A stretch of 64,000 nucleotides of DNA, from NCBI RefSeq assembly GCF_030684315.1, contig NC_081397.1, forward strand, positions 5,332,001 through 5,396,000. Reading direction: 5' to 3'. Origin of the DNA: Stegostoma tigrinum (taxonomy: Eukaryota). Under the pieces are notes generated by a model. It searched no databases. It saw nothing but the letters and a program-made list of their open reading frames with translations, and was not told where the DNA came from. The position numbers and the translations under genes were made by a program. Of the stretch, positions 7,801 through 61,200 are shown one piece after another; within the stretch, counting starts at the first letter, position 1; each line of letters begins with the position of its first letter.

Positions 7801-10800
7801 TACAACTGCTCGTTTCTCACCGAAATCAGAATCACAGATATGGTACAGCGCAGAGGTGTACAAAATGAACAGAGGTAGAGATAGAGGAGTGGAGTTAGCT
7901 TTGACGAGGTGACATGGTTTTAAAGTGAAAGGAGGTAGATATCGGGGAGACGTCAGAGGTAGGTTCTTTGCTCAATGTGTACCTGTCAGTTATTACTCTG
8001 TGAATTTGTATCTAATAATTATATTCTTCATGTCAGTATTTGCAACATAAATGTGTGAGCACATGTCTCCAGCACTCCCTGTCAGTTAGTAGTTATCAAT
8101 TATCAACCTGTACCTGTCAGTTTCTGGGTTTTGAATGGGAAATGAATTTATCATTCTCTCCTAGTCAGTTTATGCTCTGTAAATGGGCAAGGAAAATGAT
8201 CAGTCCTTGCCTGTCAGCTTCTGCTGTTTGAATACGAATGTCATGATAAACCTGTACCCATCAGTTCCCGCCATGTGAATGTGAGTTTTAACATCAGCTT
8301 TCTTTTGTCTGTTTCTGGAATGTCAACGAGTCGTCGTAGATATCAATCTGTACCTGTCAGTTTTTACTGTTGTGTATCAATGTGCCTTGATTCTCTGGCA
8401 ACCAGTAACATTCTCTTTGACTGAGAGATACATTCTGATATAGCTATTAGGATGTCCAGACAGGCTATTAATCTCTTCCGCATTTTGTGACTTCTGCATT
8501 TACTGTCAGTTGGCAGGATCTAGGAAGGGTCATAGAAGTGGGGTTGCTTTCCTCTGAGAACCACTCTGAATCAGTAACACGTTTTCTAGTTTGCGTGCTG
8601 AGTGTGGGTTTTCTATACCGCACGTCCCGAATGCTGGTTCTGTGTGTCAGTACGGGATCTTTTTTCTGGGTTCTGTAGTATCAATGAGATATTTAGATTC
8701 ATTTTCCGTTGGACATTTTTAGTGCTCTTTCATTAAAGAGAGTTATGTTCTGCACCTATCTGTCTATTTCTACATTATATATTTATACTAATACTCTAAA
8801 CAACAGAATGTCATTTCCTTCATCACCAGGATCAGAATCAGGATGAGGTGCAGTGCAGAAGTAGACCATTCTGCCCATTGTGCTTGCACTGGGACATTCT
8901 ATTCTGCATACTAGTTTCCAGTAGTTGGAGAGAATGTGAGCTTCTTCCACTCACTCCTCGTGTCTATCTGGTAGTGCCAACATGACATTAATTCTGTAGT
9001 TAACAGCCTTTGAATAGCTGGAGTGCCAGCTTTGCGATGTCTGCAACAGTCTCAGGTACTGTATATGGATTTCATTCTCCTTTCCTGTTCATTTGTGGTT
9101 TTGTATCTGAATGTAGCATAAACTCTGCAGATATTCACTGACCCTGTATGATTGAGGGATTAATTTTGCACTGACATTTGTCCTTACCAGTGAGGCTTAA
9201 TTTCGTTGCATTCAATCTCAGTTTTTTTCTTTTAATTTGAGTGCACAGTGGACTTTGTCAATCATAACTAGACAATGTAACAAATAAACATCGAACATCA
9301 AATCTCCTCTCTGTTGTGATTGGTGAGTTTGTGCATCAGTTTACATTTGTCCATATCTGGAAATCTGTGTAAGGATAAATTTCATTATCTTCCTTTCGTC
9401 ATTCAATGACTGGCTGTGAGCGAGTTTTCTTGCATGCTCCTCGTCAATATATCTTTAAAGACTGTTACTGATTCATGTCACACTGACTGTTTCTGTATGT
9501 CTCCTTGTGTTTCTAGCTCATGTCATGTCATCATCTGATACTCCTCATAAGGTGTGATTCATGTACTGTAAAACAGCTTTTTCATACATTGACTCTCGCA
9601 GAAACATGTCCACTCTTTCTCAGTCTCTTGACCAGAATGTCAGCATGGATGAAGTGAGTTTTCATCAGTACTTTATTCAGTCTCTGGTATTATCTGTCAA
9701 TCTGCTTCTCATTATTTGTCATTGTATTTCACAGTGCATGAGTATCTTTTTAAAATGAACACATCACTTTCAGAAGTTGCAGGAGTGTGTTTGATTTTTC
9801 TAATCTCTACTGCTCAACATGAATGAGTCTTCATCTAATCCCCTCAGTGTCAGGGCCTAAAAGTGAAGGCATTTCTCCCTTTGTCAGTCTCTGATGTGCG
9901 ATTATTCTAGATTGGTCAGTCCCTGGTCTGAACGTTTATTCCAAATTTTGCTCATGTGACTGGCATCCAACAGAGAAGAACATGGAAACTAACATGAGTG
10001 TACTAGGGAAGGTCGAGAGTAACTTCAATCCCTTTGTAGAAATTTGAAAACAAAATGAAAGGAAATGTACAATGTTTCTTGTTGGACTGAAGGAAAAATT
10101 AAAAGCAATGTTAAATCCTGTAAGGTGAAGCAATGGAGAATAATGTTGCCATAAGGGTGAGGACAGCAGTTCCTCTGCAGCCTCGATACATTCATAGAAA
10201 TAGAATACTGACTGATTGGGTTTAGCGTTGTGAGCTGTTTTTCATTGGCGCAGACCCAAAGGGCCAAAGGGCCTTTTTCTGTGCTGCAGACTTCTATAAC
10301 TTGAGGTTGTTTGGGGAGATCACATTGAATGTACCATTTTCTATGATTTGCAGCGTATACAGAACGTTTGGTTGTTCCACATTGCAACATGCACCTTTGG
10401 ACAGTCAGAGTGTGTGTGTGTGTGAGCCAGAGGGTTAGAATTATTCCACAAAGAATTAATTCTGTACTTCTCATTTACTGATAAGCTTCATAAAAACGTG
10501 TTTCCTCCATGTTAGTAACTCTTGTCCTCTCAGTGAGCAGTTTCTTCCCATTTCTGCACTGAACTGAGGTATGGCTGTTGCCACTATGTTACAGCATGAT
10601 CTATTTGTTTGTCTTGATTGTAAGTTTGAAAATGCCCTTAGTCAGTGCAGATTTAATTCTGTTCCCGAGTGTCTATTCCAGATGACCGTTCAGTCTATCC
10701 ATCTTCAAAACCGGTGTCGATGTCAATGTCAATGGGCTACATACCTGCTGATTGTTAGAAGCAGCTAGTCACACATGGCTTTCTACCGAGGAAATATGAT

Positions 10801-10879
10801 AACATCCAGGTCCTTCCAGTATTTGCCTGGAGGAAGAGAGAATACACGCTTCCTGTAAAATCCTGAAAATGTGAGATAA

Positions 10880-11029: not shown

Positions 11030-11477
11030 TCGAAAAACAGCGTGAAACAGAAGCTAATCGATGAATTTCCATCAGTGCTGAGAGGATAAAAAATACCATA
11101 AGACTGACCCCCAGCAGCTTCTTGCCGCTGTGTCTCCCACAGCAGGCCCACACACAGCCCGAGAAAGGCCTCTCTCTCTCCCCGCCCCCAGGCCGCTCTC
11201 TCTCCAAGTTCCGGGACCAGTTCCTGCTCCGCTCGGCCTCTTACCAACAGCCCCCGGTTCTCCCGGAACTGAGTCCGAATCAATGCCGGTCTCGGAGGCC
11301 CCCTCTGTGTCCCAGACTCACATCTCGATGCGCTGCCGGAAGGAGCCTGCTGCTCCCTCGCTTCCCTGGGCGCTGGTCTCTCCATTGCGGTCTGTTTCAA
11401 ACAAACCTCTTCCACTCACTGAGTAAATGCCCCTGAATGGCAGCGCAGGGGGAGGGCCTCACGCATGCGCTCCTCTG
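11030..11477 (-). promoter_or_regulatory. CpG-island promoter and putative first exon, copy 1 (ATG 11385, exon end 11322, GTGAGT donor)
   Basis: CpG-rich; GCGCATGCGT NRF1-like site at 11461-11470; gcaATGG Kozak context; near-identical to 37800-38240 and 46586-47030. Confidence 0.65.
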
Positions 11478-15088: not shown

Positions 15089-15409
<321 letters not shown>

Positions 15410-16260: not shown

Positions 16261-16698
<438 letters not shown>

Positions 16699-17516: not shown

Positions 17517-17921
<405 letters not shown>

Positions 17922-19658: not shown

Positions 19659-20039
19659 TCACTTGGAGCTGGTGTACTTGGTCACCGCCTTTGTACCCTC
19701 CGACACGGCGTGCTTGGCCAGCTCCCCGGGCAGCAACAGCCGCACGGCGGTCTGGATCTCCCGGGAGCTGATGGTGCTGCGCTTGTTGTAATGGGCCAGG
19801 CGGGAAGCCTCCCCTGCGATACGCTCGAAAATATCGCTGACGAACGAGTTCATGATGCTCATGGCCCTAGAGGAGATGCCGGTGTCGGGGTGAACCTGCT
19901 TCATCACTTTGTAGATGTAGATGGAGTAACTTTCTTTCCTGCGTCGGCTCCTTTTCTTGCCGCTTTTCCCCGGCGCCTTCTTGATGATTTTCTTCGCGCC
20001 TTTCTTGGAAGTTGCCTGCGATTTCTTCTCATCTGCCAT
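19659..20039 (-). CDS. H2B: Histone H2B (126 aa, divergent N-tail)
   Basis: [17 protein letters not shown]...[23 protein letters not shown]...AVTKYTSSK. Confidence 0.99.
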
Positions 20040-21809: not shown

Positions 21810-22100
21810 CATCGAATCCCTACTGTGTGGAAACAGGCCCTTTGGCCCAACAAGTCCATGCTGACACTCCGAGCATCCCACCCAGATCCATCCTGCTATA
21901 ACTCACCCAACACATCACTGAACACCACGGGAAAATTCCCATAGCCAACCCACTTAGTCTGCACATCTTTGAACTGTGGGAGGAAACCAGTGCACCCGGA
22001 GGAACATCATGCAGACATGGAGAGAATGTGCAAACTCCACACAGATAATCGCCTGAGGATGGAATTGAACCCGGATCCCCGGTGCTAACCACTGAGACAC
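21810..22100 (-). mobile_element. HE1/V-SINE-like SINE (mirror 62580-62880)
   Basis: B-box-like GGTTCAATTCC on the minus strand plus the conserved SINE core. Confidence 0.75.
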
Positions 22101-22124
22101 CGAAGTGCCCAACAAAGGTCACAG

Positions 22125-28770: not shown

Positions 28771-30379
28771 TTCATGCAATGCAAATGTGACAGCAGCTAT
28801 CATTGTGTAGCCGCCAGTTTCTGCAATTTGAATGTCACTGTTATCAATCTCTGAGTTTCTGCTTGGTGACCATGTGAGTGCAGTTATCAATAACGGCCTG
28901 TCAGCTTCTACTCTGTGAATATGAGAGTAGTTACCAAACTGTATCTGTCAGCTAATGCTTTGTGAAACTGGGAAGGCTGACTCCAGAATCTGCAGCTCTT
29001 GCTAGCTCTAAAGTGATCGTCAATCAGTTCCTATCAATTTCTTCTGTATGGATGTGTGCATGTAGAGCAACCTGTACCTATCAGTACCTCATAATTTGCA
29101 AGTAAAGTTATCAATATGTACCTGTGGGAATCTACTTTGTGAATATTTGAGTATAGTTGTCAAACTGTACCCGTCGGTATTTTTTAAATCTGTGGATATG
29201 CAGTTATAAAACTGTACCTGTCACTTTATGGTCTGTGAAATTGGGAGTTGTCATCAATATGTAGCTGCCAGTTTCTGCTGTGTGGATATGTGAAAGTAGT
29301 TATCGTTCAGTTGCTGTCAGTTTGCTATGTGAATGTGAGTGTTGTTTACTAACCTGTGTATCCCAGTTTCTATGATGTGAATGTGTGAATATCTTTATGA
29401 ATCTTTAGCTGTCGGTTTCTGCAATGTCAATATGTGAGTCTCGTCATCCTTTTTCTTTTGTATGCATTTGCAATACAAATGAGTGAGGTTAGGCATCAAT
29501 CCATACTGGTCATTTTCTACTTGTAAAAGTGGCTTAATTGTCAGCAGCCAGTAATATTCTTAGTGGAGGTATGATTCATTATGTGATAATTGCTAGTAGA
29601 GTAATTTTACATAGATTTCATTCAGATACTGAGTGTATAATTTCAGTTTATCCATCTTCAAAAATGGTGTAAAAGTCAATGGGTGATGAATGCTGAAATT
29701 TGTTGGAACTGTGTATGTGGAATGGAGAGATAAGAAAAATAAAGTTTAATTTCTCCAACCTTGTTCTCCTGTTGGAAAAATTTGAACATATCTGTTGGAA
29801 ATTAAGCTCACTGTGTGTCTGACTCAATCTGCTCTGTGACTGCGGAAAGGATGATCTCTGCTCTGACAGTGGGAACATCCCTGCTGTTTATCAGAAGGAT
29901 CTGCTCACAATTGCCTCTGCACTGAAGAAATCTTACTTTGTCTTGGTCTTTCAAGTGTTTTTTTTCTGTGGGAAGACAGAAGAGATAGTTCGTGTAAAGC
30001 AACATCAATTGGGTTTGACAATGTTAAACTGATCAACACAACATTTAGTTAATAATCATTTGGATATATTCATATAACTAGGAATTCTAACATAACTATG
30101 GGTCTTGATCCAATCTTGCCCTGAGCTGCTCCTTGTCTGATCATTTCTAAAAACTTCAACACCATTTGAATGAGCTCCTGAAAGTAAATGATACCTGTAC
30201 AGCTCCATGACTGGAACCACCCAGTGGAAGCTTGTCAGTGGATGTGAGTTTAGTTATTGATCTATTAATGTCAGTTGCTACTTGGTGAATGTGTGAGAGT
30301 AGTTATCAATGTGTCCCTCTAGGTCTTTGGTAATTATTCATGTATTACACAGCAGAGGCTGACAGGGACAGAATGATCA

Positions 30380-36400: not shown

Positions 36401-37216
36401 AATTTGTCCTTTTTTTTTACCCAAACACGGTGAATGAGTGATATTCACATTATGAACACGGGAGTGCATGTCCACACGAGGATTTAGGTATTTCGCTCAC
36501 ATTCTTTTCCATTTGTCGCTTATCATGAAAGGCTAGCTCTCTGACCTGAAATCCGTGAGTGGAAAGCATCTTCATTGTTACACTGTGAGGTTTGCAATAT
36601 ACATGATCTTCATGGCTGTTAGACGGTGTGACACGTGTGATGGGGATAGTCTATATATTTACAACACAGTGGAGTGTGTGTGTGTGCCAGAAAGTGTGTG
36701 CATACACTCTGCTGGCATTCTATGTCAGGCTTTGGGACAGGATGTGCATTTGGAAGGCACATTAATTAATTAAATTAAAAGATGAATGCTGTCCTGCTCA
36801 GTTACTGATGATAACGTGAATGTTTTCTTCCATATCTGTCCTCATTATCTGCTATATGTTTGGTTGGTGTAACTATGTAACAGCATGAACTATTTCTTCA
36901 CCTCGACAGTAAGTTTGAAAACATGCTTAATCAGTGTAGATTTACTGCCGTTCTTTTGTGTCTATTTCAGACGAAAATTCAGTCTATTCATTTTCAAAAA
37001 TGCCGTAAATGCCAATAGGCTACAAATGATCTTTTTTTGAAACAGGGTGGTGTGTTGAGAAAACAGAGGAAGGGGAAAAAACTATTTTTATTTTGTTGGT
37101 TGTGTTTGACTGTTGGCTTGCATGCATGTCACCAGAAATTGAGTTGAATGTATCTCTGACTCAATTTGCTCTGTGCCTGTGGAAAGGGTGTTCTCTGCTT
37201 GGAGATGGTAACATAC

Positions 37217-37298
37217 CTGTTGGTTGTTCGAAGGAGCTGGTCACCCTTGGCTTGGTACCAAGCACACATAACATTGTCTTGTTCCTGCAAGTGTTTTC
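37217..37298 (-). other. Exon-like module A, left-arm copy (82 bp)
   Basis: Minus strand reads ctgtcttcccccAG | ... CAG | GTATGT. Confidence 0.45.
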
Positions 37299-37799
37299 CT
37301 GGGGGAAGACAGAAGTGTTTACTCCTGTAAATCAACATCAATTAAGTTTTACAATATCAAAAAGATTACTGTAATACTCAGTTAATAATTAGTAGGATGT
37401 TTATTTTCTTTAACTTCTTCTGAAGAACAGTGCTCCAAAAGCCTGTCATTTCAAAAGAACCTGAGAGATGATGACAGTGTCATGAGACATCTACCTTTTC
37501 TTTAAAGTCATCAATTCAAATGCAGGTCAGATTCCATTTTAACTTTCAGCTGCGCCTTGTCTAAGGATATTTTTTTAAAAATATATCTCCTTCGAAAGCA
37601 ATTGAGTAAAATCTAGAAATGGAACGATAACTGTACAGCTCCACGTGAGGTGCTAACCAGAGCCACTGCAATGTCTGCGCAGTTCATGTTACCAAATCCC
37701 AATGCACTAACTGTAGAATATAGTGACTCAATCCATGACCTTTACAGGGTTCTTATTATTTCCAGTCTTGTCTGTGTTTCGACTTTGACTGCACAATGT

Positions 37800-38290
37800 C
37801 AACAAACAGCATGAAACAGAAGCCAAACAATGAATTTCCATCAGTGGTTGGGGATTTGAAAACCACAAGACTGACCCCCAGCATCTTCTTGCCGCTGTGA
37901 CTCCCTCAGCAGGCCCACACACAGCCCGAGAAAGGCCTCCCTCTCCCCGCCCCCAGGCCGCTCTCTCTCCAAGTTCCGGGACCAGTTCCTGCCCCGCTCG
38001 GCCTCTTACCAACAGCCCCCGGTTCTCCCTGAACTGAGCCCGAATCAATGCCGGTCTCGGAGCCCCCCTCTGTGTCCCAGACTCACATCTCGATGCGCTG
38101 CCGGAAGGAGCCTGCTGCTCCCTCGCTTCCCTGGGCGCTGGTCTCTCCATTGCGGTCTGTTTCAAACAAACGGCTTCCACTCACTGAGTAAATGCCCCTC
38201 AATGGCAGCGCAGGGGGAGGGCCTCACGCATGCGCTCCTCTCAACAGCCAAATGCACTTCGTTTTCGTTAGGGACATCGCGCATGCGCTA
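37800..38290 (-). promoter_or_regulatory. CpG-island promoter and putative first exon, copy 2 (ATG 38150, exon end 38087)
   Basis: Two NRF1-like GCGCATGCG[C/T] sites (~38227 and ~38279), ATG in Kozak context, GTGAGT donor at 38086-38081. Confidence 0.65.
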
Positions 38291-45063: not shown

Positions 45064-45702
45064 ATGAGCGACAGTGCAGCCGCCGAAACGGCTCCTCCAG
45101 CCTCCGCCAGCACCAAACCCAAGGCTCCCAAGAAGAAGAAGGCGGCGGCTCCCAGGAAGAAACCAGCCGGTCCCGGGTTGGGCGAGCGGATTGTGAAGAT
45201 TGTCGGGGAGAACAGCGATCGGAAGGGGACGTCTCTGGCCGCTATAAAGAAGGCGCTGCAGAGAAGCGGGGTCAATGTGGAGAAGCAGAATGCACAGATC
45301 AGGATGGCTACCAAGAGGTGCCTGGCGAAAGGCTCCCTGGTTCTGGTGAAGGGTCAGGGCGTCTCCGGCTCCTTCAAACTCGCAAAGAATCAGGTCAAGA
45401 CAAAAGTGGGAAAGAAGGCGAGACCCGCAGCAGCCGCCAAGAAAGCAGCCGTGAAGAAAACAACGGCCAAGAAGGTGGCAGCGAAGAAATCCCCAGCCAA
45501 GAAAGCAACAGGAAAGAAAGTGGCCGGCAAGAAGGCACCAACGCCAAAGAAAGCGGCGAAGAAAGCAGCGCCTCAGAAAAAGACTCCCGTGAAGAAGGTG
45601 AAAAAGACCAAGAGCCCCAAGGCCTCAAAGCCGGCCCCGAAATCGGTGAGAACGAAGGCGAAGGCCAAAGCGAAAGTGACCAAGAAAGCAGCAAAGAAAT
45701 GA
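45064..45702 (+). CDS. H1: Linker histone H1 (212 aa)
   Basis: Globular domain GPGLGERIVKIV...RKGTSLAAIKKAL...KGQGVSGSFKLAK; Lys/Ala/Pro-rich C-tail with S/TPxK motifs. Confidence 0.97.
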   Translation: MSDSAAAETAPPASASTKPKAPKKKKAAAPRKKPAGPGLGERIVKIVGENSDRKGTSLAAIKKALQRSGVNVEKQNAQIRMATKRCLAKGSLVLVKGQGVSGSFKLAKNQVKTKVGKKARPAAAAKKAAVKKTTAKKVAAKKSPAKKATGKKVAGKKAPTPKKAAKKAAPQKKTPVKKVKKTKSPKASKPAPKSVRTKAKAKAKVTKKAAKK

Positions 45703-45985: not shown

Positions 45986-46535
45986 TCAAATTATCCCTGT
46001 CCCGGTTCCGAGTGCAGACATAGCATAAACTTGAATTGATTCTATTAACTCAAATATCACATTTCCGAGAGCGGAAACTGAAAATGTTGATGGAATCATG
46101 GGGGGAGGGTCACTGGAACTGTATCTGGTTATTTCCTCCCACGGATTGTAATTCTGCCCAGACACTAATGTTGCATATTGCAGTATAACCCTTCCAGGAA
46201 TGATATTTTATCTAATTTTGATGCTACGATCTCTGGCGATGTTTTCACGGTTATTCCTTCCATTAACCTGCGAAATACATTTCAGGCAGCAATTGCAATT
46301 ACAAATTAAACATGCCCCGAAAAAAATGGGATTCTGTAATTAATCGCTTTGAAGTTGTTGAAATCGGCGGGTTTGATAAGATTGATTAACCACGGTTACC
46401 CAGCCGGTTGATCAGTTTGCCTGGGCTGTATTAAACCCCGCGCTTCCCTCCTGACTGGTACATACAGATCAGGCAATGAGCCCGTGTCCGGTCCGCGCTG
46501 CCTGCAAACTCGGTTTTAAAAAAAAATGGGGGTAA

Positions 46536-47030
46536 CAGCGCATGCGTGAGGCTGGCCCCGTCCCCAATGTTGCTTTTGCATGACCAGAGGAGCGCATGCG
46601 TGAACCTCCTCCACTACGCTGCCATTGAGGGGCATTTACTCAGTGAGAGGAAGAGGTTTGATTGTAACAGACCGCAATGGAGAGACCAGCGCCCAGGGAA
46701 GCGAGGGAGCAGCGGGCTCCTTCCTGCAGCGCATCGAGATGTGAGTCTGGGACACAGAGGGGGGCTCCGAGACCGACATGATTCGGGCTCAGTTCAGGGA
46801 GAACCGGGGGCTGTTGGTCAGAGGCCGAGCGGAGCAGGAACTGGTTCTGGCACTTGGAGAGAGAGCGGCCTGGGGCCGGGGAGAGGGAGAGGCCTTTCTC
46901 GGGCTGTGTGTGGGCCTGCTGAGGGAGACACAGCGGCAAGAAGCTGTTGGGTGTCAGTCTTGTGGTTTTCAAATCCCCAACCACTGATGGAAATTCATTG
47001 TTTGGATTCTGTTTCATGCTGTTTGTTGAC
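46536..47030 (+). promoter_or_regulatory. CpG-island promoter and putative first exon, copy 3 (ATG 46677, exon end 46740)
   Basis: GCGCATGCGT at ~46538 and ~46592, gcaATGG, donor GTGAGT at 46741-46746. Confidence 0.65.
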
Positions 47031-47531
47031 TTTTTGCATACAAAGTCGAAACACAGACAAGACTGTGGAAATATAAGAACCCTGTAAAGGACATGGATGA
47101 GAGTCAATATATTCTACAGTTAGTGCATTGGGATTTGGTAACATGAACTGCGCAGACATTGCAGTGGCTCTGGGTAGCACCTTACGTGGAGCTGTACAAT
47201 TATCGTTCCACTTCTAGACTTTACTCAATTGCTATCGAAGCAGATATACATTTAATAAAATGTCCTTCGACAAGGCCCAGCTGCAAGTTAAAATGGAATC
47301 AGACCTGCATTTGAATTGATGACTTTAAAGAAAAGGCAGATGTCTCATGACAATGTCATCATCCCTCGGGTTCTGTTGAAATGACAGGCTTTTTGAGCAC
47401 CGATCTTCAGAAGAAGTTAAAGAAAAGAAACATCCTAATAATTATTAACTGAGTATTACAGTAATCTTTTTGACATTGTAAAACTTAATTGATGTTGATT
47501 TACAGGAGTAAACTCTGCTGTCTTCCCCCAG

Positions 47532-47613
47532 GAAAACACTTGGAGGATCAAGACAATGTAATGTGTGCTTGGTACGAAGCCAAGGGTGACCAGCTCCTTC
47601 GAACAACCAACAG
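47532..47613 (+). other. Exon-like module A, right-arm copy (82 bp)
   Basis: ctgtcttcccccAG | GAAAACAC...AACAG | GTATGT. Confidence 0.45.
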
Positions 47614-50600
47614 GTATGTTACCATCTCCAAGCAGAGAACACCCTTTCCACAGGCACAGAGCAAATTGAGTCAGAGATGCATGAAGCTCAATTTCTGGTG
47701 ACATGCAAGCAAGCCAACAGTCAAACACAACCAACAAAATAAAAATAGTATCTTCTTCCCCCCCCCCCCCCCCCCCCCACCCCAACCTCTGTTTTCTGAA
47801 ATCACCACTCTGTTTCAAAAAATGATCATTTGTAGCCTATTGGCATTTACGGCACTTTTGAACGTGAATAGACTGAGTTTTCATCTGAAATAGACACAAA
47901 AGAACGGCAGTAAATCTACACTGAGTAAGCATGTTTTCAAATTTACTGTCAAGGTGAAGAAACAGTTCATGCTGTTACATAGTTACGCCAACCAAACATA
48001 TAGCAGATAATGAGGACAGATGTGGAAGAAAACATTCACGTTATCATCAGTAACTGAGCAGGACAGCATTCATCTTTTGTCAAATAGATGTCCCAGGCAC
48101 AGCCAGAACAATTAGTTTAATGTGCCTTCCAAATGCACATCCTGTCCCAAAGCCTGACGTAGAATGCCAGCAGAGTGTATGTGTGCACTTTCTGGCACAC
48201 ACTCACTCCTCTGAGTTGTAAATATATACACTATCCCATCAAACGTGTCACACCATCTAACAGCCATGAAGATCATGTATGTTGCAAATCTCAGTGTAAC
48301 AATAAAGATGATTTCCATTCAGGGATTTCAGGTCAGAGCTAGCCTTTCATGATGAGAGCCAAATAGAAAAGAATGTGAGCTAAATACTTCAATCCTCATG
48401 TGGACATGCACTCGTGTTCCTAATGTGAATATCACTTATTCACTGTACTTGGTGGGGGGGGGGGGGGGGGGGAGGACAAATTTTGTGGCGTTCAGTTCAG
48501 GCAGGTGATGCATTTTGAAAGATCCACTTCAAGATCGAACTATGTGGTAAATGGAAAAGCCCTGCCAAAAACTGCTCAGAGTTCTGGGTGTTCAGGTCCA
48601 TTGCACCCTGAAGGTGGCAACGCATGTCGATGTAGTGGTCAAGAAGACATACTGCATTCTTTCCTTCAACAGATGGGTCATTTAGTGCAAGAGTTGGCAG
48701 GTCATGTTACAGTTGTATAGGGCTTTGGTTTGAGCACATTTGGAATATTGTTTTCGGTTCAGGTCACCACACTACCTAAAGGATGTTGATGCTTTGGAGA
48801 AGGCGCAGAGGAGGTTCACCGGGATGTTGCCTGGCATGGAGGGTGCTAGCTATGAAGAGAGTTTGAGTAGATTAGGATTATTTATGTTAGCAAGTTGGAG
48901 GTTGAGGGGAGACTTGATTGAGGCCTACACAGTCATGAGATGAATTGACGGGGTGGGTAGCAAGAAGCTTTTTCCAAGAGTGTGGAACTCTATGACTACG
49001 TGTCATGATTTCATGGTGAGGGGGCAAAAGTTTAAGGATGATATGCATGGAAAATTCTTTACGCAGAAGGCTTTGGGTGCCTGGAATGCGTTGCCAGCGG
49101 AGGTGGTAGAGGTGTGCATTATAGTGTCCCTTAGTGTATATATGTAGACAGGTGACTGGACAGGGAGCAGAGGGATACAGATCCTTGGAAAATAGGTGAC
49201 AGGTTTAGATAGGGGATGTGGATCAGCACAGGCTTGGAGGGCCAAAGAGCCTGTTCCTCTGCTGAAATGTTTTTTTTTTGTTCTTTGACACACTGAATTC
49301 GTAAGAAGTAGTCCAAAAAATATATCGAACAAGAGATTAATTTCACCTCTGTGTCACCATCTCATTGACTTAGAGATTATTAAAGTATCATTTCCTTTTG
49401 TACAAACTGGAGAAATAGCATATCTGGATAAGTTTCAGATTGAAATTGATTATTGTTGTTGCATTTGTTTGCATAAAACTACAAACTGAATAGTGAAAAC
49501 CATCTGATACACTTCTAATGAATATAAACTTTGCTATTAAATGGACCAGAAGGAAATCAAGTAGTGACCTGAAATGATACAGAGAATAACCTACACTCAA
49601 GCAGATAACCTAGATTGTTGACTGTACAATTAAGAATGTCTCAAACAGTGAGCTTGCAACAACAAATGAACATTAAACTCTATATGTTTCCAGACCAGAG
49701 ACCGAGCAAGCCAAAATAAGACAGAAACCCTACCCTAGAAATTATACAGGGAGAGGATGATAAATGCATTCACAAACCAGTTAGCGTCAGGCATAGCCTA
49801 AAAACTCCTCTCTCAGATTTTACAGGACACGATCTGAGGGGTCTAAATGGTTAAATGCACTTGCACAGCCAGAGAGAAGAAACTGACAGGCACGTATTGA
49901 TAATGGCGCACTCATATTCACATATCAGAAAATGACAGGGACAGAAAGATAATTACACACACATTCAGACTGCAAAAACTGACAGGTACAGGCTGGTAAA
50001 TACATGCATACATGACAGGAAAGCAAAAGCATAAGTATATGTGGATTGATAACTACATTTGCATATTCACAGACAAATTTGACAGGGACATATTTGTAAC
50101 ACTTTCACATTCACGCAAGAGGAATTGATGGATATAGGTTGATAACTAAACTCACATATTTCACAGCAGAAATTGAGGGACAGTTTGATGATTACGCTCA
50201 TATCTTCACATGACAGCTACCAATAAGTATGAATCGATGATTACCACTCACACACACAAATTCATAGACGTCTGCAGCACAGCAAACAGTCCTTTCTCTC
50301 TCTGAATCTGCACTGTTCAGAAACAACCAGCCGACAATTCTACATCAATTCAGCCAGTATTCAAATTCCATGCATGTGTCATGTTGGCAGAGGAAGTATC
50401 ATCCTCACCTTTATCAGTTGTCAATTTCTTCAAGCATGATCAGATTTTTTTATTCTATATTAAGCAAGAGGACTTTATAATCAGAGACCTTTTGTTTTCA
50501 AATTAGCTTAAAATTTGTTCAAATATCTGTGTTCCTCTTGACAATCCACCTGAATTTTTACATAAAACATAAGAAAGCTTCATGCCATTTTTTTCAAACG

Positions 50601-53117
50601 AGCAATATCACAATAGAACCGCCCTCACTTATATTTTGCAAAGATTGGTCAACAGTGTTTATTCTTCAGTAAATTCAGTTTGACGGTTCCAGTTGTGCCC
50701 AGTGAATGACAGAAATCAAAAGTTCAACATCGAGCATGTTAATGTCCGCGCCGTAAAACGAAATCCAAGTAAGAAAACTAATTTTCTTTCCTGCACAAGC
50801 AACATTGTGGTCAGTCAGCCGCAATGCAGTTGATTTGTTCATTGCACTTCCTCTTTGGCAATAACATACTAAATTCACATCTTTACTTTAGCAGCATTCC
50901 AAGACTTGTGTCACTATGCAATGTTGAATAATATTAATCTCATCCTGAAAATATCCTTTGATATCACCACAGCGGTTAGACTCTGCAATGTATCCTTGGC
51001 AAAGGTCCATTGCTTCTCTGTCCTCAACTCTGAAGAAAAGCACAGACTCATTTCAGTTGCAATGCCTTGCATTTTCACTTGCTTATAAATGCTGGAGACA
51101 CAAACAACTGAAGAACATAGGCTGTTTCACATTTGCGAAAGAAGAGATGAACCGAAAACTCTGTTCTCTGCCATGGTGGTAATTGGCTCTCCACTTTACA
51201 AGAAATACTTAATCTGCTCAGTAATGCAATACAGGAAGATAGAAATAGGATCAATTGAGTGGATCCGTCTGTCTTGTTTCATAACAGCAGCTCTTGTGCC
51301 AATACACAGTAGGAACAGAATAACTTAAAGTGTGGAGATGCTGCCAGGTTAGTAGATACCCAGGCAAAAACAAAAGAAAATGCCATTTCTCTTAAATATC
51401 ACATGGGTGGGAGAGCTCCCCTTTCATTATGCATGAATAGGACAGGGTAAGAGCGAAGTACTTCAATCCCAGTATGTGAATACTTTCCTTGAGGATTAAG
51501 TATGAGGTATCAGCTTGGCATAAAGTAAATTAGTCATGTTCACTACATCAGAAAATACTGAATCGATTGCATGATCAATGATGAATTCTACTGAAACAGC
51601 TCAAGAAGTAAATTGAAATCCAGATTAAATATGCCTCCAAATATCACACCATGTCTTAGATTTGGACACTTAACTAGTGCATCAATTTCCTTTGTTGAAA
51701 CTGAAGGAAATATATAGTAGGCCAAGTTTAAAATGAAATAAACATTACAATTTAATTTGCTTCCAATGAGGTACAAATTAAAAAGCAGCTCTCATCTCGT
51801 GCAGAAGTACTGCATAACGATGTTGTTAAATGGACCAAAGAAGAAAGCAAATGGGGTCATGAACAGATACAGATAACTGGAGTTTATTGGAAATAGATTG
51901 AAGAAACGCTGATCTCATGATCTTGTTACAGGAGGAATAAATACACATTCAGTTTTTGAGTGACTGACCAATCCAGAACAAAACTTACTATCATAAACCG
52001 GACAGTAACCAAACTGCATCTACAGAGTCAGAGACTGACAAAGGTATTAAAACAGTTTAATTTACATGATCTGATTATATGGCATTGGGTAAAATCTCAT
52101 TCATGTTGAGCAGCAGAGATTTGAACAATAGAAGAATGTCAGCAGTTCCTACAAGTAACATTTTCAATGCAACATTACCCACTCATTACCCATGTGAAAG
52201 ATGATGAAAATGCATGAGGAATACATTGACACACAATGCCAGAGACTGACTTGATGCCATGCTGACTGTCAGCCCGACGCTAATGAAAACCAACAGTAAC
52301 CACACTTATAATCTCAGTGGGAGACTGACTATTTCAGAAGAATGCCCACACTCTCTCTATGATTAATGTATTATAAATTAGTGTTATAATGATATAATAA
52401 TTTATAATACACCTCATAAAGGGAATCAAATCATACATGCAGAGCGAGAAACACAAGCAGACATTTGGAAAAGGACAGTGTCACTTTGCCCAATACCCAT
52501 CTTTAATTCAGATTGGCACCTCATTAGAAATCTCCCTCTCTTACAACAAACAGATGCTGAAAGGAAAGAAATGAAATTGATACCTCTGGTCGGCATGGAC
52601 TGTTGGACCAAAGGTCTGTTTCCCAGATGGACTTTGACAATATTGCTGCACTCTCATATTCACAAAGCAGAAACTGATCAGAAGAAACTCACAGTAACAC
52701 TCCCAAGCCGCATGAGGCATAAAATGGCATAACAAGGCAGTTATATTCACAGAGTAGAATCTGATAGGGGGAAATAACAATTATATTTCCATATTTAAAT
52801 CACAGAAACTGATTGGAAAGGGTTTACAACTGCACTTAAACATTCACACTGCAGGTAATGACAGGGACAGATTGATAACAACGTCCGTATATGCACGTAG
52901 CCAAGAATGATCGGTAGAAATAGATAACTGTGTTCTCATATTCATGGAGAGGAAAGCATTACAAATTCATAACTGCATTTATATATTCACATCACAAAAA
53001 CTGATAGTTGCAGATGAATAACTACATTCTCAGGTTCCCAGAGCAGACGTGGACAGATGCAGATTGAAATTTGCACTCAAATATTCACGTTGCATGTTCA
53101 CACATCATTATCAACAG

Positions 53118-53432
53118 AGATAGAGTTGATAGCCAGAGACTATTTCCCAGGGCAGAAATGGCTAGCACGAGGGGTCAGAGTTTTAAGCTGGTTGGTGGAA
53201 AGTATAGAGGGGATGTCAGAGGCAGGTTATTTACGCAGAGAGTTGTGAGAGCATGGAATGCGTTGCCAGCAGCAGTTGTGGAAGCAAGGTCATTGGGGTC
53301 ATTTAAGAGACTGCTGGACATGTATATGGTCACAGAAATTTGAGGGTGCATACATGAGGATCAATGGTCAGCACAACATTGTGGGCTGAAGGGCCTGTTC
53401 TGTGCTGTACTGTTCTATGTTCTATGTTCTAT
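53118..53432 (+). mobile_element. Recent CR1 LINE 3'-end insertion, right arm only
   Basis: Nearly identical to the 3' end of the 6697-7800 element, with a (TTCTATG)n tail; the empty site is at ~31730 in the left arm. Confidence 0.9.
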
Positions 53433-55196
53433 TAATTACAAAACTCACATCTGTATAACACAAATAGACACTGATTGCTGTGTGAAGGTGCAATTGTATT
53501 TTTCAATCAGTCCCTGTCAGTTTTCACAATGTGGATGTGTGATTTTAGTTATCAATCAATACCTGTCAGTGAATGCCACGTGAATGTGTGAGGATAGTGT
53601 AATGCATGTTAACTACATGGATTTTAGTAAGACATTTGATAAAGTACCATGCAGCAGATGAATCAGAAATGGAAAGGCTCATGGGATACAGAGCAATGTG
53701 CTAAATTGGAAGCAAAGTTTGCTTAGCAACAGGAATCAAATGGTCAATGGCTGCCCTTGTAAACCGAAAGCTGTTTCAAGTGGTGTTTCTCATAGCTCAG
53801 TGTTGGGACCTCTGCTGTTTGTTTTATATGATAGCAACTTGAACTTGAACATGGGGATACAATTGGGAAATTTTCAGCCAGCACAAAAATTTAACAGTGT
53901 ACTGGTAGTCCAGAGGATAGCTGTCAGCTCCAAAATGATATAGAAGTTTTGATGGAAGGGGCAGATGAGTGGCATATGGAGTTCAACTCTGATAAATGTG
54001 AGGTAATGCATTTCAGGAGGTGCAAGGACACAAAATAGGAATACATGAGGTGGTGTGGAAATTGTACATAAAATGAGTGGTTTGGTGTGCAAGTGTAATG
54101 GAGTATGAAAATAGCAGTGCAGGTGGATAAGATTGTGAAACTAGGTATATAGAATGCTGTCCTTTTTTGGCAGAGGTATACAACACAAAAGTAGGGCTAT
54201 AACGATGAAAGTATTTAAGACACTGGTGAGGCTGGAACTGATGTATTGTGCGCCGCGATGGTCACCACATTACAGGACAACGTTATTGCTCTGGATATAT
54301 TGCAGAGAAGATTTACTGGAATGTTGCCAGGGCTGGAAAGTTATAGCTATGAGGAGTGATTGCAGAGGTTGGAGCTGTATTATTTTGAACAGTGAAAGCT
54401 GGGAGTGCCATGATTGAGGCAATTGGGATGGGCAGAGACAGAGTCGACAGGGGGAATCGGTTTCCCTTGGCATAGAGTTTAAAAACCATTGGGTGTAGAT
54501 CAAGTGAAGTGGCAGAACGATGAGAGATGATGGGAGGAAAACCATTTTTATGAGAGGTTGCTTATCTCAAATACGCTGCCTGAGTTGCTGATAGCAGAGA
54601 TTCTCAACTCTTGTCAGAACATACCTGGACCTCCACATTCAGTCTGCAAGCTGCAGGGCTATGGGATGTATGCAAGAAGATCGGATTTTATGATGGCCAT
54701 TTTGGGGTGTTTGGGTCAGCATGGATATATTGAGCCAAATGGCCACCTTCTGTGCTGCATAATTTAAATTGATCAATAGTTCGTGATCATTCTCTCCCTG
54801 TCAGCCTCTGCTGTGTAATACATGAATAATGACCAAAGACCTCGAGGGACACGTTGATAACTACACTCACACATTCACCAAGTAGCAACTGACATGAATA
54901 GATCAATAACTAAACTCACATCCACTGACAAGCTTCCACTGGGTGGTTCCAGTCATGGAGCTGTACAGGTATCATTTACTTTCAGGAGCTCATTCAAATG
55001 GTGTTGAAGTTTTTTGAAATGATCAGACAAGGAGCAGTCAGGGCAAGATTGGATCAAGACCCATAGTTATGTTAGAATTCCTAGTAATATTAATATATCC
55101 AAATGATTATTAACTAAATGTTGTGTTGATCAGTTAAACATTGTCAAACCCAATTGATGTTGCTTTACACGAACTATCTCTTCTGTCTTCCCACAG

Positions 55197-55280
55197 AAAA
55201 AAACACTTGAATGAACAAGACAAAGTAAGATTTCTTCAGTGCAGAGGCAAGTGTGCCCAGATCCATCTGATAAACAGCAG
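55197..55280 (+). other. Exon-like module B (84 bp), paralog of module A
   Basis: ctcttctgtcttcccacAG | ... CAGCAG | GTATGT; the left-arm counterpart (~29880-29965) has GG in place of the donor GT. Confidence 0.4.
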
Positions 55281-58200
55281 GTATGTTCCCACTGTCAGAG
55301 CAGAGAACATCCTTTCCGCAGTCACAGAGCAGATTGAGTCAGACACACAGTGAGCTTAATTTCCAACAGATATGTTCAAATTTTTCCAACAGGAGAACAA
55401 GGTTGGAGAAATTAAACTTTATTTTTCTTATCTCTCCATTCCACATAGACAGTTCCAACAAATTTCAGCATTCATCACCCATTGACTTTTACACCATTTT
55501 TGAAGATGGATAGGCTGAAATTATACACTCAGTATCTGAATGAAATCTACGTAAAATTACTCTACTAGCAATTATCACATAATGAATCACACCTCCACTA
55601 AGAATATTACTGGCTGCTGACAATTAAGCCACTTTTACAAGTAGAAAATGACCAGTATGGATTGATGCCTAACCTCACTCATTTGTGTTGTAAATGCATA
55701 CAAAAGAGAAAGGATGACGAGACTCACATATTGGCATTGCAGAAACCGACAGCTAAAGATTCATAAAGATATTCACACATTCACATCATAGAAACTGGGA
55801 TACACAGGTTAGTAAACAACACTCACATTCACATAGCAAACTGACAGCAACTGAACGATAACTACTTTCACATATCCACACAGCAGAAACTGGCAGCTAC
55901 ATATTGATGACAACTCCCAATTTCACAGACCATAAAGTGACAGGTACAGTTTTATAACTGCATATCCACAGATTTAAAAAATACCGACGGGTACAGTTTG
56001 ATAACTATACTCAAATATTCACAAAGTAGATTCCCACAGGTACATATTGATAACTTTACTTGCAAATTATGAGGTATTGATAGGTACAGGGTGCTCTACA
56101 TGCACATATCCATACAGAAGAAATTGATAGGAACTGATTGACGATCACTTTAGAGATAGCAAGAGCTGCAGATTCTGGAGTCAGCCTTCCCAGTTTCACA
56201 AAGCATTAGCTGACAGATACAGTTTGGTAACTACTCTCATATTCACAGAGTAGAAGCTGACTGGCTGTTATTGATAACTGCACTCACATGGTCACCAAGA
56301 AGAAACTCAGAGATTGATAACAGTGACATTCAAATTGCAGAAACTGGCGGCTACACAATGATAACTGCTGTCACATTTGCATTGCATGAACCGTTGGGGT
56401 CAGATTAATAACAATGCTGTTGTTGAATTGCTCAACAAGCTTGTTACTTGTTTAGAGACATTTTGTCACCATCTACATAATACCTTCAGTGCACCTCTGG
56501 TGATGTGTTGCTGTTGTGTCCTGCTGGCTGTTTATGTGCTGCAGTTGACTGGGGTGGCTGACATCACTTCTGGATTTGTTTCTCAGTGGTTGGTGTATGG
56601 GATCCTGCTCTACGCATTTGTTGATGGCATTCCAGTTTGAACGTCAGGCCTCCAGGAATTCTTGTGCATGTCTTTGGTTGGCTTGTCCTCAGATGATTAA
56701 GTTGTCCCAGTCAAATTGGTGTCCCTCTTTGTCCATGTGTATTGAGATGAGTGATAGTTGGCCATGTCTCTTGGTAGCTGGTTTGTGTCTACGAATCATG
56801 ATGGCTAGTTTCCTACCAGTTTGGCCTGTGTACTGCTTTTGGCATCTGTGCACGATATCGTGCAAATAACATTGGTTCTGTCAGTTGTGGTTGTTGGTTC
56901 GGGGCAATATGGTGCTCATTTCTGACATGTTTTTCATGTTTGGTCAGGTGACTAGTGTTTCTGGACGTGCTGTGTTATCCATTTGTCGTCTGTTGTGCAG
57001 GTGTCGAAGGACAATGCTTTTCAGGTAACCTTCGTTTCTATAGTCACTGTATCGTGTTCTTCCTCAGCTTTACGCAGCTCTGGATGCTGCAGTGTGTTGT
57101 GGCTCACTTGAACAGTGTTTTGGTGCAGCTCCATTAGTAGATATTGGGATGATTGCTATTGTAGTTGAGTATCTGATCAGAATCTATTAAAACATGTAAT
57201 AACTACACTCTCAGGCTCTCCTAACTGAAATTGACAAAGAGCGATTGATAACTAAACGTTCACATAGCAAAACAGTGTCATGGACAGACTGATAATTTCA
57301 GACACATATTCACTGAGTAGAAACTGACTGACAGAAAATGACATCTATACTCAGGTACCCGGATAGCAGAAACTGACAGGAACAGGTTGATGATAACATG
57401 GACATGTACATGATACCTGCACTCCCTCATTCCAATTGCATTAACTGAGTGGTACAGATTGATTCCTGCACTCTCACATTCTCACAACAGAAAGTGGCAG
57501 AGACAGATATATAACTGCATTCATTCACACGGCACAAACTGTGAGGACAAGGTTGTCACTACGCTCTCACATTTACAGAGCAGAAACTGACAGGTACAAA
57601 GTAAATTTGCACTCATACGTCCACAAATCAGAAACTGAAAGGCCCATATAGATACCCACACTCTCTGTTTCACACAGCATAAACGGACAAAATAAAACCC
57701 GAAAGAACTGCGGATGTTCCCCCCGCAGCGGTCGGCAATGCCCTCAACCATGTCTTCCACATTTCCCGCGCCTCATCCCTCACACCCTGTCCCTGCAATA
57801 ACTGTCAAAACAGAAACCCCTTCGTCCCCACATACCACCTTACCAACGTCTGGATACAACGCATCATCCTCCGACACTTGTGCCATCTACGATTCAACCC
57901 TACCACCAAAGACATTTTTACTACCCCACCCTTGTCTGCTTTCAGGTGAGACCACTCTCTCCACAACTCCCTTGTCTGGTCCACACTCCCGTCCAACCCC
58001 AGCACACCCGGCACCTTCCCCTGCAACCGCAGGAAGTGCTACACTTGCCCTCACACCTCCTCCCTAACCCCAATCCCAGGCCCCAAGATGACTTTCCACA
58101 TCAAGCAGATGTTCCCCTGCACATCCGTCAATGTGGTATACTGCATCGGCAGTACCCGGTGTGGTTTTGTCTGCATTGGCGAAACCAAGCGGAGCCTTGG

Positions 58201-61200
58201 GGACTGCTTTGCAGAACAGCTCCACTCGGTTCGCCATAAACAACTACACCTCCCAGTCGCGAACCATTTCAACTCCCCCTCCCATTCCTTAGACAACATG
58301 GGCATCCTGCAGTGTCATAATGATCCCACCCGTAGGTTGCAGGAACAGCAACTCATATTCCGCTTGGGAACCCTGCAGCCTCATGGTATCGATGTCGATT
58401 TCACCTGCTTCAAAATCTCCCTTCCCCCCACTGCATCCCAAACCAGCCCAGCTCGTCCCCGCCTGCCTAACCTGTTCTTCCCCTCACCTATCCCCTCTTC
58501 CCACCTCAAGCCGCACCTCCATTTCCTACCTCCTAACCTCAGCCTGCCCCCTTGACCTGTCCATCCTCCCCAGACTGACCTATCCCCTCCGTACCTCCCC
58601 ACCCATACTCTCCTCTGCACCTATCTTCTCCTCTGTCCACCTTCAGTCCACCTCTCCCTCTCTCCCTATTTATATCAAAACCCTCTCCCCTTCCCCCTTT
58701 TTCTGATGAAGGGTCTCGGCCCAAAACGTCAGCTATTATGCTCCTAAGATGCTGCTTGGCCTGCTGTGTTCATCCAGCCCCACACCTTGTTATCTGCGGA
58801 AGCTGTAAATCAGGAACAAAAACAAAGTTGCTGGAAAAGCACAGCAGGTCCAGCAGCACCTGTGAGGGAGAAAACCGAGTTAACATTTCAGGTCCGGTGT
58901 ACAGATCGATAACTAAACTCACGTATTCACATTGAGGAATCTTTGAGCTAGAGACTGATAATCACAGTCCTACATTCAGAGAACAGGAACACACAGGCTA
59001 GACTGATAACTAACTTCATGTATTAACATAGCAGAAACTGACTGGCATAGATTGGTAACTGCATTCACGTTATCTTGTCAGCTGCAACAAACAGGTACGG
59101 AGAGATAACTACACTCATACATTCACTCCGTAAATACTGACAATGACAAACAGCTTCAATCCCACCTATTGCATAGCAGAAATTGTCAAGAGCAGATTGA
59201 TAATAAAGTGTGGAGCTGGATGAACACAGCAGGCCAAGCAGCATCTCAGGAGCACAAAAGCTGACGGTTCGGGCCACAACCCTTCATCAGAGAGGGGGAT
59301 GGCGAGAGGGAACTGGAATAAATAGGGAGGCGGGGGGAGGCGGACCGAAGATGGAGAGAAAACAAGATAGGTGGAGAGGACAGTGTAGGTGAGGAGGTAT
59401 GGAGGGGATAGGTCAGTCCAGGGAAGATGGACAGGTCAACGACGTGGGATGAGGTGGTCAGTTGGAAATGGAGGTGTGGCTTGAGGTGGGAGGAAGGGAT
59501 TGGTGAGAGGAAGAACAGGTGAGGGAAGCAGAGACAGGCTGGGCTGGTTTTGGGATGCAGTGGGGGGAGGGGAAGAACTGGGCTGGTTTTGGGATGCAGT
59601 CGGGGGACCCCAGAGGATCCGCCTCATCCTCACATACCACCTCACCTACCTCTGGATACAACATATCATCCTCCGACTCTTCCACCATCTACAATCCGAC
59701 CCCACCACCCAAGCCATTTTTCCATCCCCACCCTTGTCTCTTTCCGGAGAGACCACTCTCTCCGCGACTCCCTTGTCCGCTCCACACTCCCCTCCAACCA
59801 CACCACACCCTGCACCTTCCCCTGCAACCACACAAAGTGCGACACTTGCCCCACGCACCTCCGCCACCCCCATCCCAGGCCCCAGGACCTTCCATATCAA
59901 ACAGATGTTCACCTGCACATCTGCCAATGTGGTTTATTGTATCCTTTGCACCCAGTGTGGCTTGCTCTACGTTGGAGAAACCAAGCGGAGGCTTGGGGAC
60001 CACTTTGCAGAACACCTCCGCTCGATTCGCAACAAACAACTGCACCTCCCAGTCGCGAAACATTTCAGGTCCCCCTCCCATTCCTCAGATGACATGTCCA
60101 TCATGGGCCTCCTGCATTGCCACAATGATGCCACCCGAAGGTTGCAGGAACAGTAACTCATATTCCGCTTGGGAACCCCGCAGCCCAATGGTATCAACGT
60201 GTACTTGACAAGCTTCAAAATCTCCCCTTCCCCGACTGCATCCCAAAACCACCCCAGTTCTTCCCCTCCCCACTCTGTATCACAAAACCAGCCCAACCTG
60301 TCTCTGCATCCCTAACCTGTTCTTCCTCTCACCAATCCCTTCCTGCCACCTCAAGCCGCACCTCCATTTCCAACTGACCACCTCATCCCGCCTCCTTGAT
60401 GTGTCCATCTTCCCTGAACTGACGTATTCCCTCCCTACCTCCCCACCTATACTCTCCTCTCTACCTATCTTCTTTTCTCTCCATCTTCGGTCCGCCTCCC
60501 CCCTCTCTCCCTATTTATTCCAGTTCCCTCTCCCCATCCCCCTCTCTGATGAAGGGTCTCGGCCTGAAACATCAGGTTTTGTGCTCCTGAGATACAGTGA
60601 TAACTGCTGCCAAACATTCGCAGAGCACGTATGAAAATAAACAGATTGATAACTAAACACCCATTTTCACAAGACAGAAGACTGATGGGGAAAAATTGGT
60701 ACGTCCTGTCATAATTTCACACAGCAAAGACTGATATGGACGGAATAATAACTACAGTTACACATTCATGCAACAGAATCTTTAAGGAATGTATTGATAA
60801 TTGTACAAACAAACTCACTTAGGAGAAACTGACAGTCTCAGATTTAAAACTACACTCTCTTTTTCACAAACTAAAAACTGGCAGGTACAGTGTGACAACT
60901 GAACTCAATAGTCACAGAACAAAGTCTCCCAGGTACATTGTGACAACTACATTCTCACATCTGCCTAACAGAAACTAAACTCGCATATTGACGGAGCAGA
61001 AATTGGCATGTGCAGACTAATGCCTGCACTCTTACATTGATACCACCGAATGGACATGTAGGCACGTGTAACAACACTCATGCATTTTCTTGGAGAAACT
61101 GTCAGGCATGGATTGAGAACTACACCCACACATTCACAGAGCACAGATTGAAATGTACAGACTAATAATGTCACATTTTTGGACAACAGAAATGACAGAG

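Follow-up and report, generated by a model that had tools for sequence, protein, structure and literature searches.

A spliced, likely non-coding transcription unit stands at the edges of histone gene blocks in Stegostoma tigrinum, in a family of ~160 copies. It is tentatively regarded, at somewhat less than an even chance, as acting in cis, with copies that face an H2B gene splicing onto that gene in the manner of a LUTI (long undecoded transcript isoform). The H2B junction is taken from automated gene models; promoter activity, poor translation and repression in cis are putative. The window, the whole stretch of DNA analysed, comprises 64,000 nt of the forward strand (GCF_030684315.1, NC_081397.1, positions 5,332,001-5,396,000). 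It lies on C56, a histone-rich contig of 15.6 Mb, and this chromosome is composed of large inverted and tandem duplications. The window contains genes for histones H4 (15098..15409, +; head-to-head with copy 1 of the unit), H3 (16288..16698, +), H2A (17517..17909, -), H2B (19659..20039, -; with its own TATA box and stem-loop, and the target of copy 2's direction) and H1 (45064..45702, +; 3' stem-loop present, between copies 2 and 3). Neither tRNA genes nor C2H2 zinc-finger genes occur within the 64 kb.

Each of the three window copies opens with a promoter-like cassette, at 11.0-11.5 kb (-), 37.8-38.2 kb (-) and 46.6-47.0 kb (+), 90-93% alike over ~460 bp. A preceding sequence-only reading had counted three cassettes; the count holds for the window, but the genome carries ~160. 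The copy 3 cassette (46536..46950, +) comprises a promoter-like sequence, rich in GC and with no TATA box, together with exon 1 and the opening ~200-300 nt of intron 1. It carries two GCGCATGCG sites, at 46538 and 46592. The GCGCATGCG motif, presumably an NRF1-type site, has six matches in the window, all inside cassettes (expected 0.05; six or more in 0/100 shuffles). The supposed CpG island is borderline, with a GC content of 0.60-0.64 and a CpG o/e of 0.59-0.63 vs 0.40 across the window. The distance from the strong ATG to the GT donor is 64 nt in 3/3 copies, and the encoded peptide is as originally read. Exon 1 of copy 3, from its ATG to the donor (46677..46740, +), holds a 21-codon upstream ORF whose stop is formed at the junction with exon A-a. 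Cassette and exon 1 of copy 2 lie at 38087..38290 (-; ATG 38150), and those of copy 1 at 11322..11476 (-; ATG 11385), directed away from the histone block. Copies 2 and 3 do point outward from H1 into the arms of a palindrome (20680-38241 / 46586-64000), whose identity is 92-96%. Across 60 copies the 64-nt exon is almost invariant, and its GT donor is missing in two.

The exons that follow belong to module A. Copy 3 has exon A-a (47532..47613, +; 82 nt, non-coding) and exon A-b (55197..55280, +; 84 nt), the latter with a GT donor after 55280 and an internal GC donor after 55246, which is predicted from RefSeq models of paralogous units. Copy 2 has A-a at 37217..37298 (-; 82 nt) and A-b at 29881..29965 (-; 85 nt; both donors altered). 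Copy 1 has a single module A exon (10745..10826, -; 82 nt), followed by a trail of module B repeats down to ~5 kb. The T+GA stop that would leave a 21-aa peptide is formed in copies 2 and 3 but not in copy 1, whose second exon begins GC and gives a 35-aa ORF. The splice sites 46740>47532 and 47613>55197 are located where the sequence-only reading placed them. The junction 47613>55197 (GT..AG) is present in contigs of X1 and X2, probable RNA runs from a related species; these contigs start at 47532 and connect A-a to A-b. It is found zero times in run X3 and zero times in the DNA-like run X4. Three runs were guessed to be RNA (word share 0.04). The joint of exon 1 to A-a does not occur among the contig matches listed (15 listed, 118 further), and the RefSeq model P0024 begins within intron 1, so that the models leave exon 1 unproven as the first exon. 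The X2 junction contig continues through A-b to 55647, a form unspliced to H2B. Neither reads nor contigs crossing a joint to H2B turned up in the comparison, which covered a stretch ending short of the H2B gene. LINE fragments occur in the introns of units.

Module B is a degenerate repeat of ~49 nt with the core GCAGAAACTGAC, sense to the unit and densest at 55790..57700 (+). It gives 223 hits in 264 kb, sense-oriented and confined to units; its exact 21-mers on C56 number 11/11. An AATAAA at 57691 is retained in copy 2 and possibly marks the end of a stand-alone form. The B trail of copy 3 does not stop at 55300, the unit end formerly proposed, and reaches an H2B gene at G000:C56:5397640 (window equivalent 65640; acceptor 65629), 1.6 kb past the window edge. 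The co-oriented link to H2B had been missed because this target lies outside the window.

Exact matches to the promoter/exon-1 cassette number 156 in the whole genome; among the 100 listed, 99 are on C56 and one on C18. A second cassette subfamily pattern has 99 of 100 listed matches on C56 (5 further matches), and two further cassettes lie on C62, a histone-bearing contig. A dispersed transposon end, the case named as fatal to the sequence-only reading, is rejected, since the matches listed are almost all on one contig and not spread over chromosomes. The C18 copy was considered as a processed pseudogene and rejected; its donor is retained and module A is absent. The expected co-location with histone genes was borne out: a cassette lies <=6 kb away for 49/51 H1 genes (random mean 5.9, maximum 14) and 31/37 H4 genes (random mean 4.3, maximum 12), although the copies arose by segmental duplication, so that the counts are not independent. 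Cassettes occupy several distinct positions around histone blocks. No listed histone lies ahead within 40 kb for 71/157 (~45%). The family is found in at least four shark species. A role as leader for zinc-finger genes is rejected: the nearest such family is convergent with the units in 17/17, and the nearest upstream cassette, co-oriented in 16/17, is 111-183 kb off, while the B trail stops after ~12 kb.

For 32/33 H2B genes a co-oriented cassette is the first listed upstream feature, 10-20 kb away. In 32/34 H2B genes an acceptor AG stands 11 nt ahead of the ATG, and it is shared by two H2B subfamilies differing in context (CAG and AAG). With one gene scored per histone class, H2B has the only clean acceptor (16/20 pyrimidines, no competing AG). 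In the window's own H2B gene, otherwise intact, the AG at -11 reads GG. Joining natural loci as A-a>H2B, or as A-a>A-b(GC donor)>H2B, reproduces the zebra-shark RefSeq 'late histone H2B.L4-like isoform X1/X2' proteins P0019, P0022 and P0023 with no letter changed. In the whale-shark model P0018 a MERPA start is joined to module A, to sequence derived from B and to H2B; the model passes through the H2B promoter and leaves the -11 acceptor unused. H2B fusion models are thus known from two species, and automated gene models point to a unit-to-H2B junction. In RefSeq models P0006, P0011 and P0012 module A is linked with sequence other than histone. Spliced H2A fusions were tried and rejected, as the 147-aa H2A models of RefSeq start from an upstream ATG in the genomic sequence; no spliced H2A model matching the H2B case was found. 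All 13 splice forms modelled from 5 units open with a 21-codon upstream ORF followed by 3 or 4 more upstream ATGs. An in-frame extending ATG occurs in 6/13, by which H2B would gain 13-38 residues; these forms therefore need not be undecoded.

In the preferred reading, the unit would act in cis through its own transcription. RNA from an H2B-facing copy would cross the H2B promoter and splice onto the acceptor 11 nt ahead of the H2B start codon; the product would be a long H2B isoform. Short upstream ORFs in this isoform may block most H2B translation, and the passing polymerase may damp the H2B gene's own promoter. Copies facing away from histones may have a chromatin-opening role. The broader proposal of a second histone-locus control layer in carpet sharks, in which ~160 promoter-and-leader modules convert H2B genes that are intronless and S-phase into spliced isoforms driven from upstream, either for shut-off in cis or for an N-terminally extended supply outside S phase, is considered somewhat unlikely.

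It is somewhat unlikely, but a serious alternative, that the units are a stand-alone multicopy lncRNA family, in which exon 1 is followed by one to three A exons and a long last exon of B repeats, acting as RNA or as a transcription-made boundary, with splicing to H2B an occasional read-through into a cryptic acceptor. The copies without a listed histone ahead yet carry the same cassette as the H2B-facing ones; the extension of the X2 contig beyond A-b, the AATAAA shared with copy 2, the sense orientation and confinement of the B repeats and the three non-histone models all agree with it. Retention of the H2B acceptor across two subfamilies of differing context, the fusion models from two species and the absence of conserved structure argue against it.

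A second, cell-cycle-independent promoter giving H2B protein, partly extended by 23-38 N-terminal residues, to non-dividing cells is improbable. The TATA-less, housekeeping-type cassette and the in-frame extended forms in RefSeq and copy 3 would suit such a role, and mammalian differentiated tissue makes spliced, polyadenylated H2B mRNA (PMC5100578). Against it, a strong-context upstream ORF precedes in every form, no matching spliced H2A model exists among those found, and the extension-coding exons, 72-85 nt long, are free of coding constraint. The pN/pS of module A is 0.89 in the open frame vs 0.93 and 0.79 in the other frames (25 non-redundant modules), and no Pfam domain was found in 6/6.

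It is still less probable that the unit is a neutral passenger, an active promoter trapped in the histone segment as it was amplified, kept uniform by gene conversion and without selected function. The duplicated structure of the chromosome, the free decay of exons and the two donorless copies would fit. This is opposed by the ~400-bp cassette, ~90% alike between unit types where the parts downstream are only ~70% alike, and by the spread of the family over species and over positions around histone blocks.

The units are very unlikely to form a family of unstructured precursors for piRNA or other small RNAs. Multicopy spliced non-coding units with intronic LINE fragments, antisense towards the adjacent zinc-finger genes, would be in keeping with this, but positive evidence is lacking. 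Rfam finds three histone stem-loops in the window and nothing else, with 0 matches within 46400-57800 up to E 5, and no stable hairpin occurs in the repeated module (best folding z -2.2 over 29 windows). A structured form of the small-RNA precursor proposed in the sequence-only reading, and likewise a snoRNA/miRNA host gene, are not supported on these grounds. A box C/D snoRNA before module A was also dismissed: what looks like a D box is ~40 nt away from the acceptor, the expected place of a branch point, and has neither Rfam nor fold support.

A micropeptide gene family for the 21-aa peptide, suggested by the strong start context and the almost invariant exon, is largely refuted and hardly credible, since variants in the 60 copies comprise 14 replacement vs 3 silent (silent share at or below the neutral 24-29%), the ORF is 21, 29, 35 or more aa long depending on unit type, models from bamboo shark have lost the splice donor and diverge at 5/21 residues, and the unspliced exon-1 ORF found no protein match either at E 1 (67-214 aa) or at E 10 (73-2000 aa). 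Reading the junction TGA as selenocysteine was set aside, since TGC stands at that place in other unit types and module A lacks coding constraint. Exon 1 and module A are without coding constraint. With the placement and the RNA-contig junction, this upholds the earlier idea of a histone-locus-associated spliced non-coding unit.

No description of the family was found in the literature searched, which comprised main texts and few subscription papers. Automated RefSeq models of Stegostoma, Rhincodon and Chiloscyllium ('uncharacterized protein LOC...', 'late histone H2B.L4-like isoform X1/X2') are pieces of it, annotated singly as unknown proteins or H2B isoforms and unrecognised as one family. 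If the preferred reading is true, upstream promoters whose transcripts are spliced to the 5' UTR of almost all H2B genes on a 15-Mb histone chromosome would be a different regulatory route, and a natural many-copy test case for transcriptional interference in a vertebrate. The weaker reading would still leave a lncRNA family, unrecognised so far, as a marker of the histone blocks of sharks and as an explanation for odd RefSeq H2B isoforms.

FIRRE, SNHG14 and C19MC are repeat-built lncRNAs and small-RNA host genes. Like them, the shark units contain local repeats and exon-plus-intron modules duplicated in tandem, but have no snoRNA/miRNA match and many separate promoters instead of one long gene. 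In a preprint, tRNA loci are interspersed among histone clusters of stingray, human and zebrafish (bioRxiv 10.1101/2025.06.08.657570); these are likewise non-histone multicopy units co-amplified with histone genes, whereas the shark unit is a spliced Pol II-type gene and the window is free of tRNA. A LUTI, for example yeast NDC80-luti, has a distal promoter, a 5'-extended isoform with the whole ORF, several upstream ORFs and transcription over the proximal promoter (PMC5948300). In a LUTI the main ORF goes untranslated from the long isoform, and under a regulated promoter switch the proximal promoter is repressed in cis with H3K36me3/H3K4me2. The shark unit would resemble it in a predicted distal promoter, a predicted whole-ORF 5'-extended isoform, the H2B joint being drawn from RefSeq models, and predicted transcription over the proximal promoter; upstream ORFs are present in all 13 modelled leader forms. 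They differ in a leader spliced across 10-20 kb, a ~160-copy family, a replication-dependent histone target, the ~45% of copies without a histone ahead, and repression and poor translation that are conjectural here. Animal replication-dependent histone mRNAs are described as lacking introns and ending in a stem-loop, the known exception being spliced within the 3' UTR (PMC8015243, PMC5100578). Two reports describe spliced, polyadenylated mRNAs also from replication-dependent HIST1H2BC/BD/BK (PMC5100578; PMC3661734). The shark models do not fit this Lyons type of polyadenylated histone mRNA, as their splice runs from upstream exons into the 5' UTR. In both cases an H2B gene of the canonical stem-loop kind has a spliced transcript as an alternative; HIST1H2BC/BD/BK use their own promoter and a 3' UTR donor that removes the stem-loop, whereas the shark unit would use an upstream promoter and a 5' UTR acceptor.

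The link between the unit and H2B is closer than the sequence-only reading could reveal. The unit consists of the cassette (about -90 to +350 relative to the ATG) with exon 1, between one and three module A exons (A-a, A-b; 72-85 nt) and, on the sense strand, a trail of degenerate ~49-nt B repeats. B repeats give 223 matches in 264 kb, nearly all within units, and reach as far as the next H2B. Across unit types, likeness is about 90% in the cassette versus about 70% in the downstream parts. The three window cassettes, at ~11.3 kb (-), ~38.1 kb (-) and ~46.5 kb (+) (copies 1, 2 and 3), are 90-93% alike; the 64-nt distance from ATG to donor and the exon-1 peptide read from sequence were both confirmed. 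The stop proposed at the exon junction is present in copies 2 and 3 and absent from copy 1, whose frame continues to 35 aa. The motif GCGCATGCG has six matches in the window versus 0.05 expected, and in the 264 kb around it 10/10 sites of this type are inside cassettes. An orphan module A, with neither cassette nor B trail nearby, is located at C56:5442743 (-).

Module A was recovered by profile search at the N-terminus of two histone-domain proteins. The RefSeq proteins P0019, P0022 and P0023 ('late histone H2B.L4-like isoform X1/X2') are exactly reproduced from natural loci by splicing module A exons onto an H2B acceptor 11 nt upstream of the H2B ATG, using A-a alone or A-a together with the initial 50 nt of A-b (GC donor). 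RefSeq isoform models of this kind are usually based on RNA-seq introns. The acceptor AG is kept in 32/34 H2B of the class on C56, the window's contig (11/12 + 19/20 + 2/2); the two lacking it include the H2B gene within the window. Copy 3 is directed at the H2B at window-equivalent 65640, where the acceptor is kept. A 21-codon uORF opens all three modelled splice forms of copy 3; an ATG frame overlaps the H2B start in two, and in one an in-frame ATG extends H2B by 38 residues.

Below 15.1 Mb, the first listed feature upstream of H2B is a co-oriented cassette in 32/33 cases, at 10-20 kb; the single exception has no cassette within 30 kb. Seen from the 157 C56 cassette positions (merged from both subfamily patterns and one further listing), the first feature met on the same strand is H2B for 32 and H2A for 44, some of the latter passing an H2B pseudogene on the way; four face H1 head-on, six reach another cassette, and 71 have nothing listed ahead within 40 kb (H3 is outside the list). 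The first feature upstream of 49/51 H1 and 34/37 H4 is an oppositely oriented cassette. Broken H2B genes are located downstream of cassettes at C56:5556286 (-), C56:5581925 (+) and C56:324746 (-).

Genome size is 3.2 Gb, of which C56 comprises 15.64 Mb. The window contains H4, H3, H2A, H2B and H1 genes with histone stem-loops, surrounded by LINE-like fragments. C56 can almost be called a dedicated histone chromosome: its 52 H1, 80 H2A and 34 H2B pattern matches form one block at 0.3-5.7 Mb and another at 8.9-15.3 Mb, and cassette and H2B fall into two sequence subfamilies; C62:480001-510000 is grouped with it as a further histone-bearing stretch. Window 20680-38241 / 46586-64000 is a large inverted repeat (92-96%) with H1 at the centre and a spacer of 8 kb; comparable divergent pairs of cassettes around an H1 are repeated along C56.

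Exact matches to a 20-nt exon-1 pattern number 156 in the genome, with 99 on C56 and one on C18 among the first 100 listed; the second-subfamily pattern has 105, with 99 on C56 among 100 listed. All 54 H1 matches are on C56 or C62. Cassettes are found at ≤6 kb from 49/51 H1 (random mean 5.9; two matches on C62 and one outside the listed range left out) and 31/37 H4 (random mean 4.3; 40 scored among 85 candidates, three left out likewise), counts that are not independent, cassettes and histone copies being products of segmental duplication. Four control stretches of 10 kb each, taken where C56 is free of histone genes, contained no cassette, module or histone. A dispersed transposon end does not fit the cassette, whose listed matches lie almost all on C56; the C18 copy is a lone fragment. 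In this fragment (C18:14250531-14250720) exon 1 has lost 9 nt in frame, and a high-copy repeat adjoins the point where it ends; neither module A nor histone occurs within 40 kb. Cassettes at C56:10238823 and 10285360 have ATGAGT instead of the exon-1 donor, and the region of the latter also contains an H2B without upstream cassette.

Other neighbours are as follows. A five-finger C2H2 gene at C56:5405779-5406157 (-), for which no promoter of its own was found, belongs to an 18-copy C56 family that is always convergent with the nearest unit. A 271-aa ORF at C56:5241189 (+), presumably resembling a GPR139-like receptor, faces an outward unit. In many shark H2A models (RefSeq P0026-P0039) translation begins 17 aa early, at an upstream ATG that lies between the TATA box and the real start; this is likely an artefact of annotation.

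Four sequencing runs, all in the form of contigs, were compared with window 46300-57700 at 80% likeness. X1 and X2 are two studies of one organism; X1-X3 are guessed to be RNA, and their pieces, about 87-95% alike to the window, represent relatives or paralogues. The best-supported joint, 47613>55197 (GT..AG), has a depth of 298 in X1, 64 in X2, 0 in X3 and 0 in DNA-like X4. The X1 and X2 joint contigs both start at acceptor 47532, with 16 extra letters ahead in X2, whose contig continues beyond A-b as far as 55647. The exon1>A-a joint is absent among the 15 joints listed (118 more exist). The unit is probably transcribed and spliced in a relative. The family also occurs in gene models from Chiloscyllium punctatum, C. 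plagiosum, Stegostoma and Rhincodon (15 profile matches, 12 of module A and three of unrelated repeats) and is so far restricted to carpet sharks. The literature search listed no account of it, though supplements of shark genome papers could mention it. Histone and tRNA co-location is described in a ray, in passages silent on the unit (bioRxiv 10.1101/2025.06.08.657570).

The unit is likely non-coding. Across 60 copies of the 21 exon-1 codons, a sample biased toward sequences closely matching the query, 17 distinct variants comprise 14 replacement and three silent (24-29% silent expected by chance). The open frame of 25 non-redundant A modules has a pN/pS of 0.89 and shows no codon periodicity. 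Bamboo shark models P0009, P0004 and P0005 translate the exon-1 region with 5/21 residues changed and, judged from protein, lack the exon-1 donor. Rfam search and folding of the unit gave no family match and no stable fold.

The favoured, though tentative, reading is that the unit acts in cis, in the manner of a LUTI (long undecoded transcript isoform). The cassette would initiate transcription where a histone block borders on its surroundings; RNA from H2B-facing copies would traverse the H2B TATA promoter and splice to H2B, placing several uORFs ahead of it. The main rival, a stand-alone lncRNA with incidental read-through, is somewhat less probable; in its favour are the 71 copies that point outward and the contig of X2. 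Supply of a replacement or extended H2B is unlikely, and a neutral passenger slightly more so. A piRNA source is very improbable, and a micropeptide hardly credible.

Splicing of H2B in the 3' UTR is described in PMC5100578, and further background is provided by PMC3661734 and PMC8015243. For the cis-acting reading, the closest known system is the LUTI, defined functionally by lack of translation together with repression in cis (PMC5948300). These defining features are only proposed for the unit, which would thus work like a LUTI rather than belong to the class.
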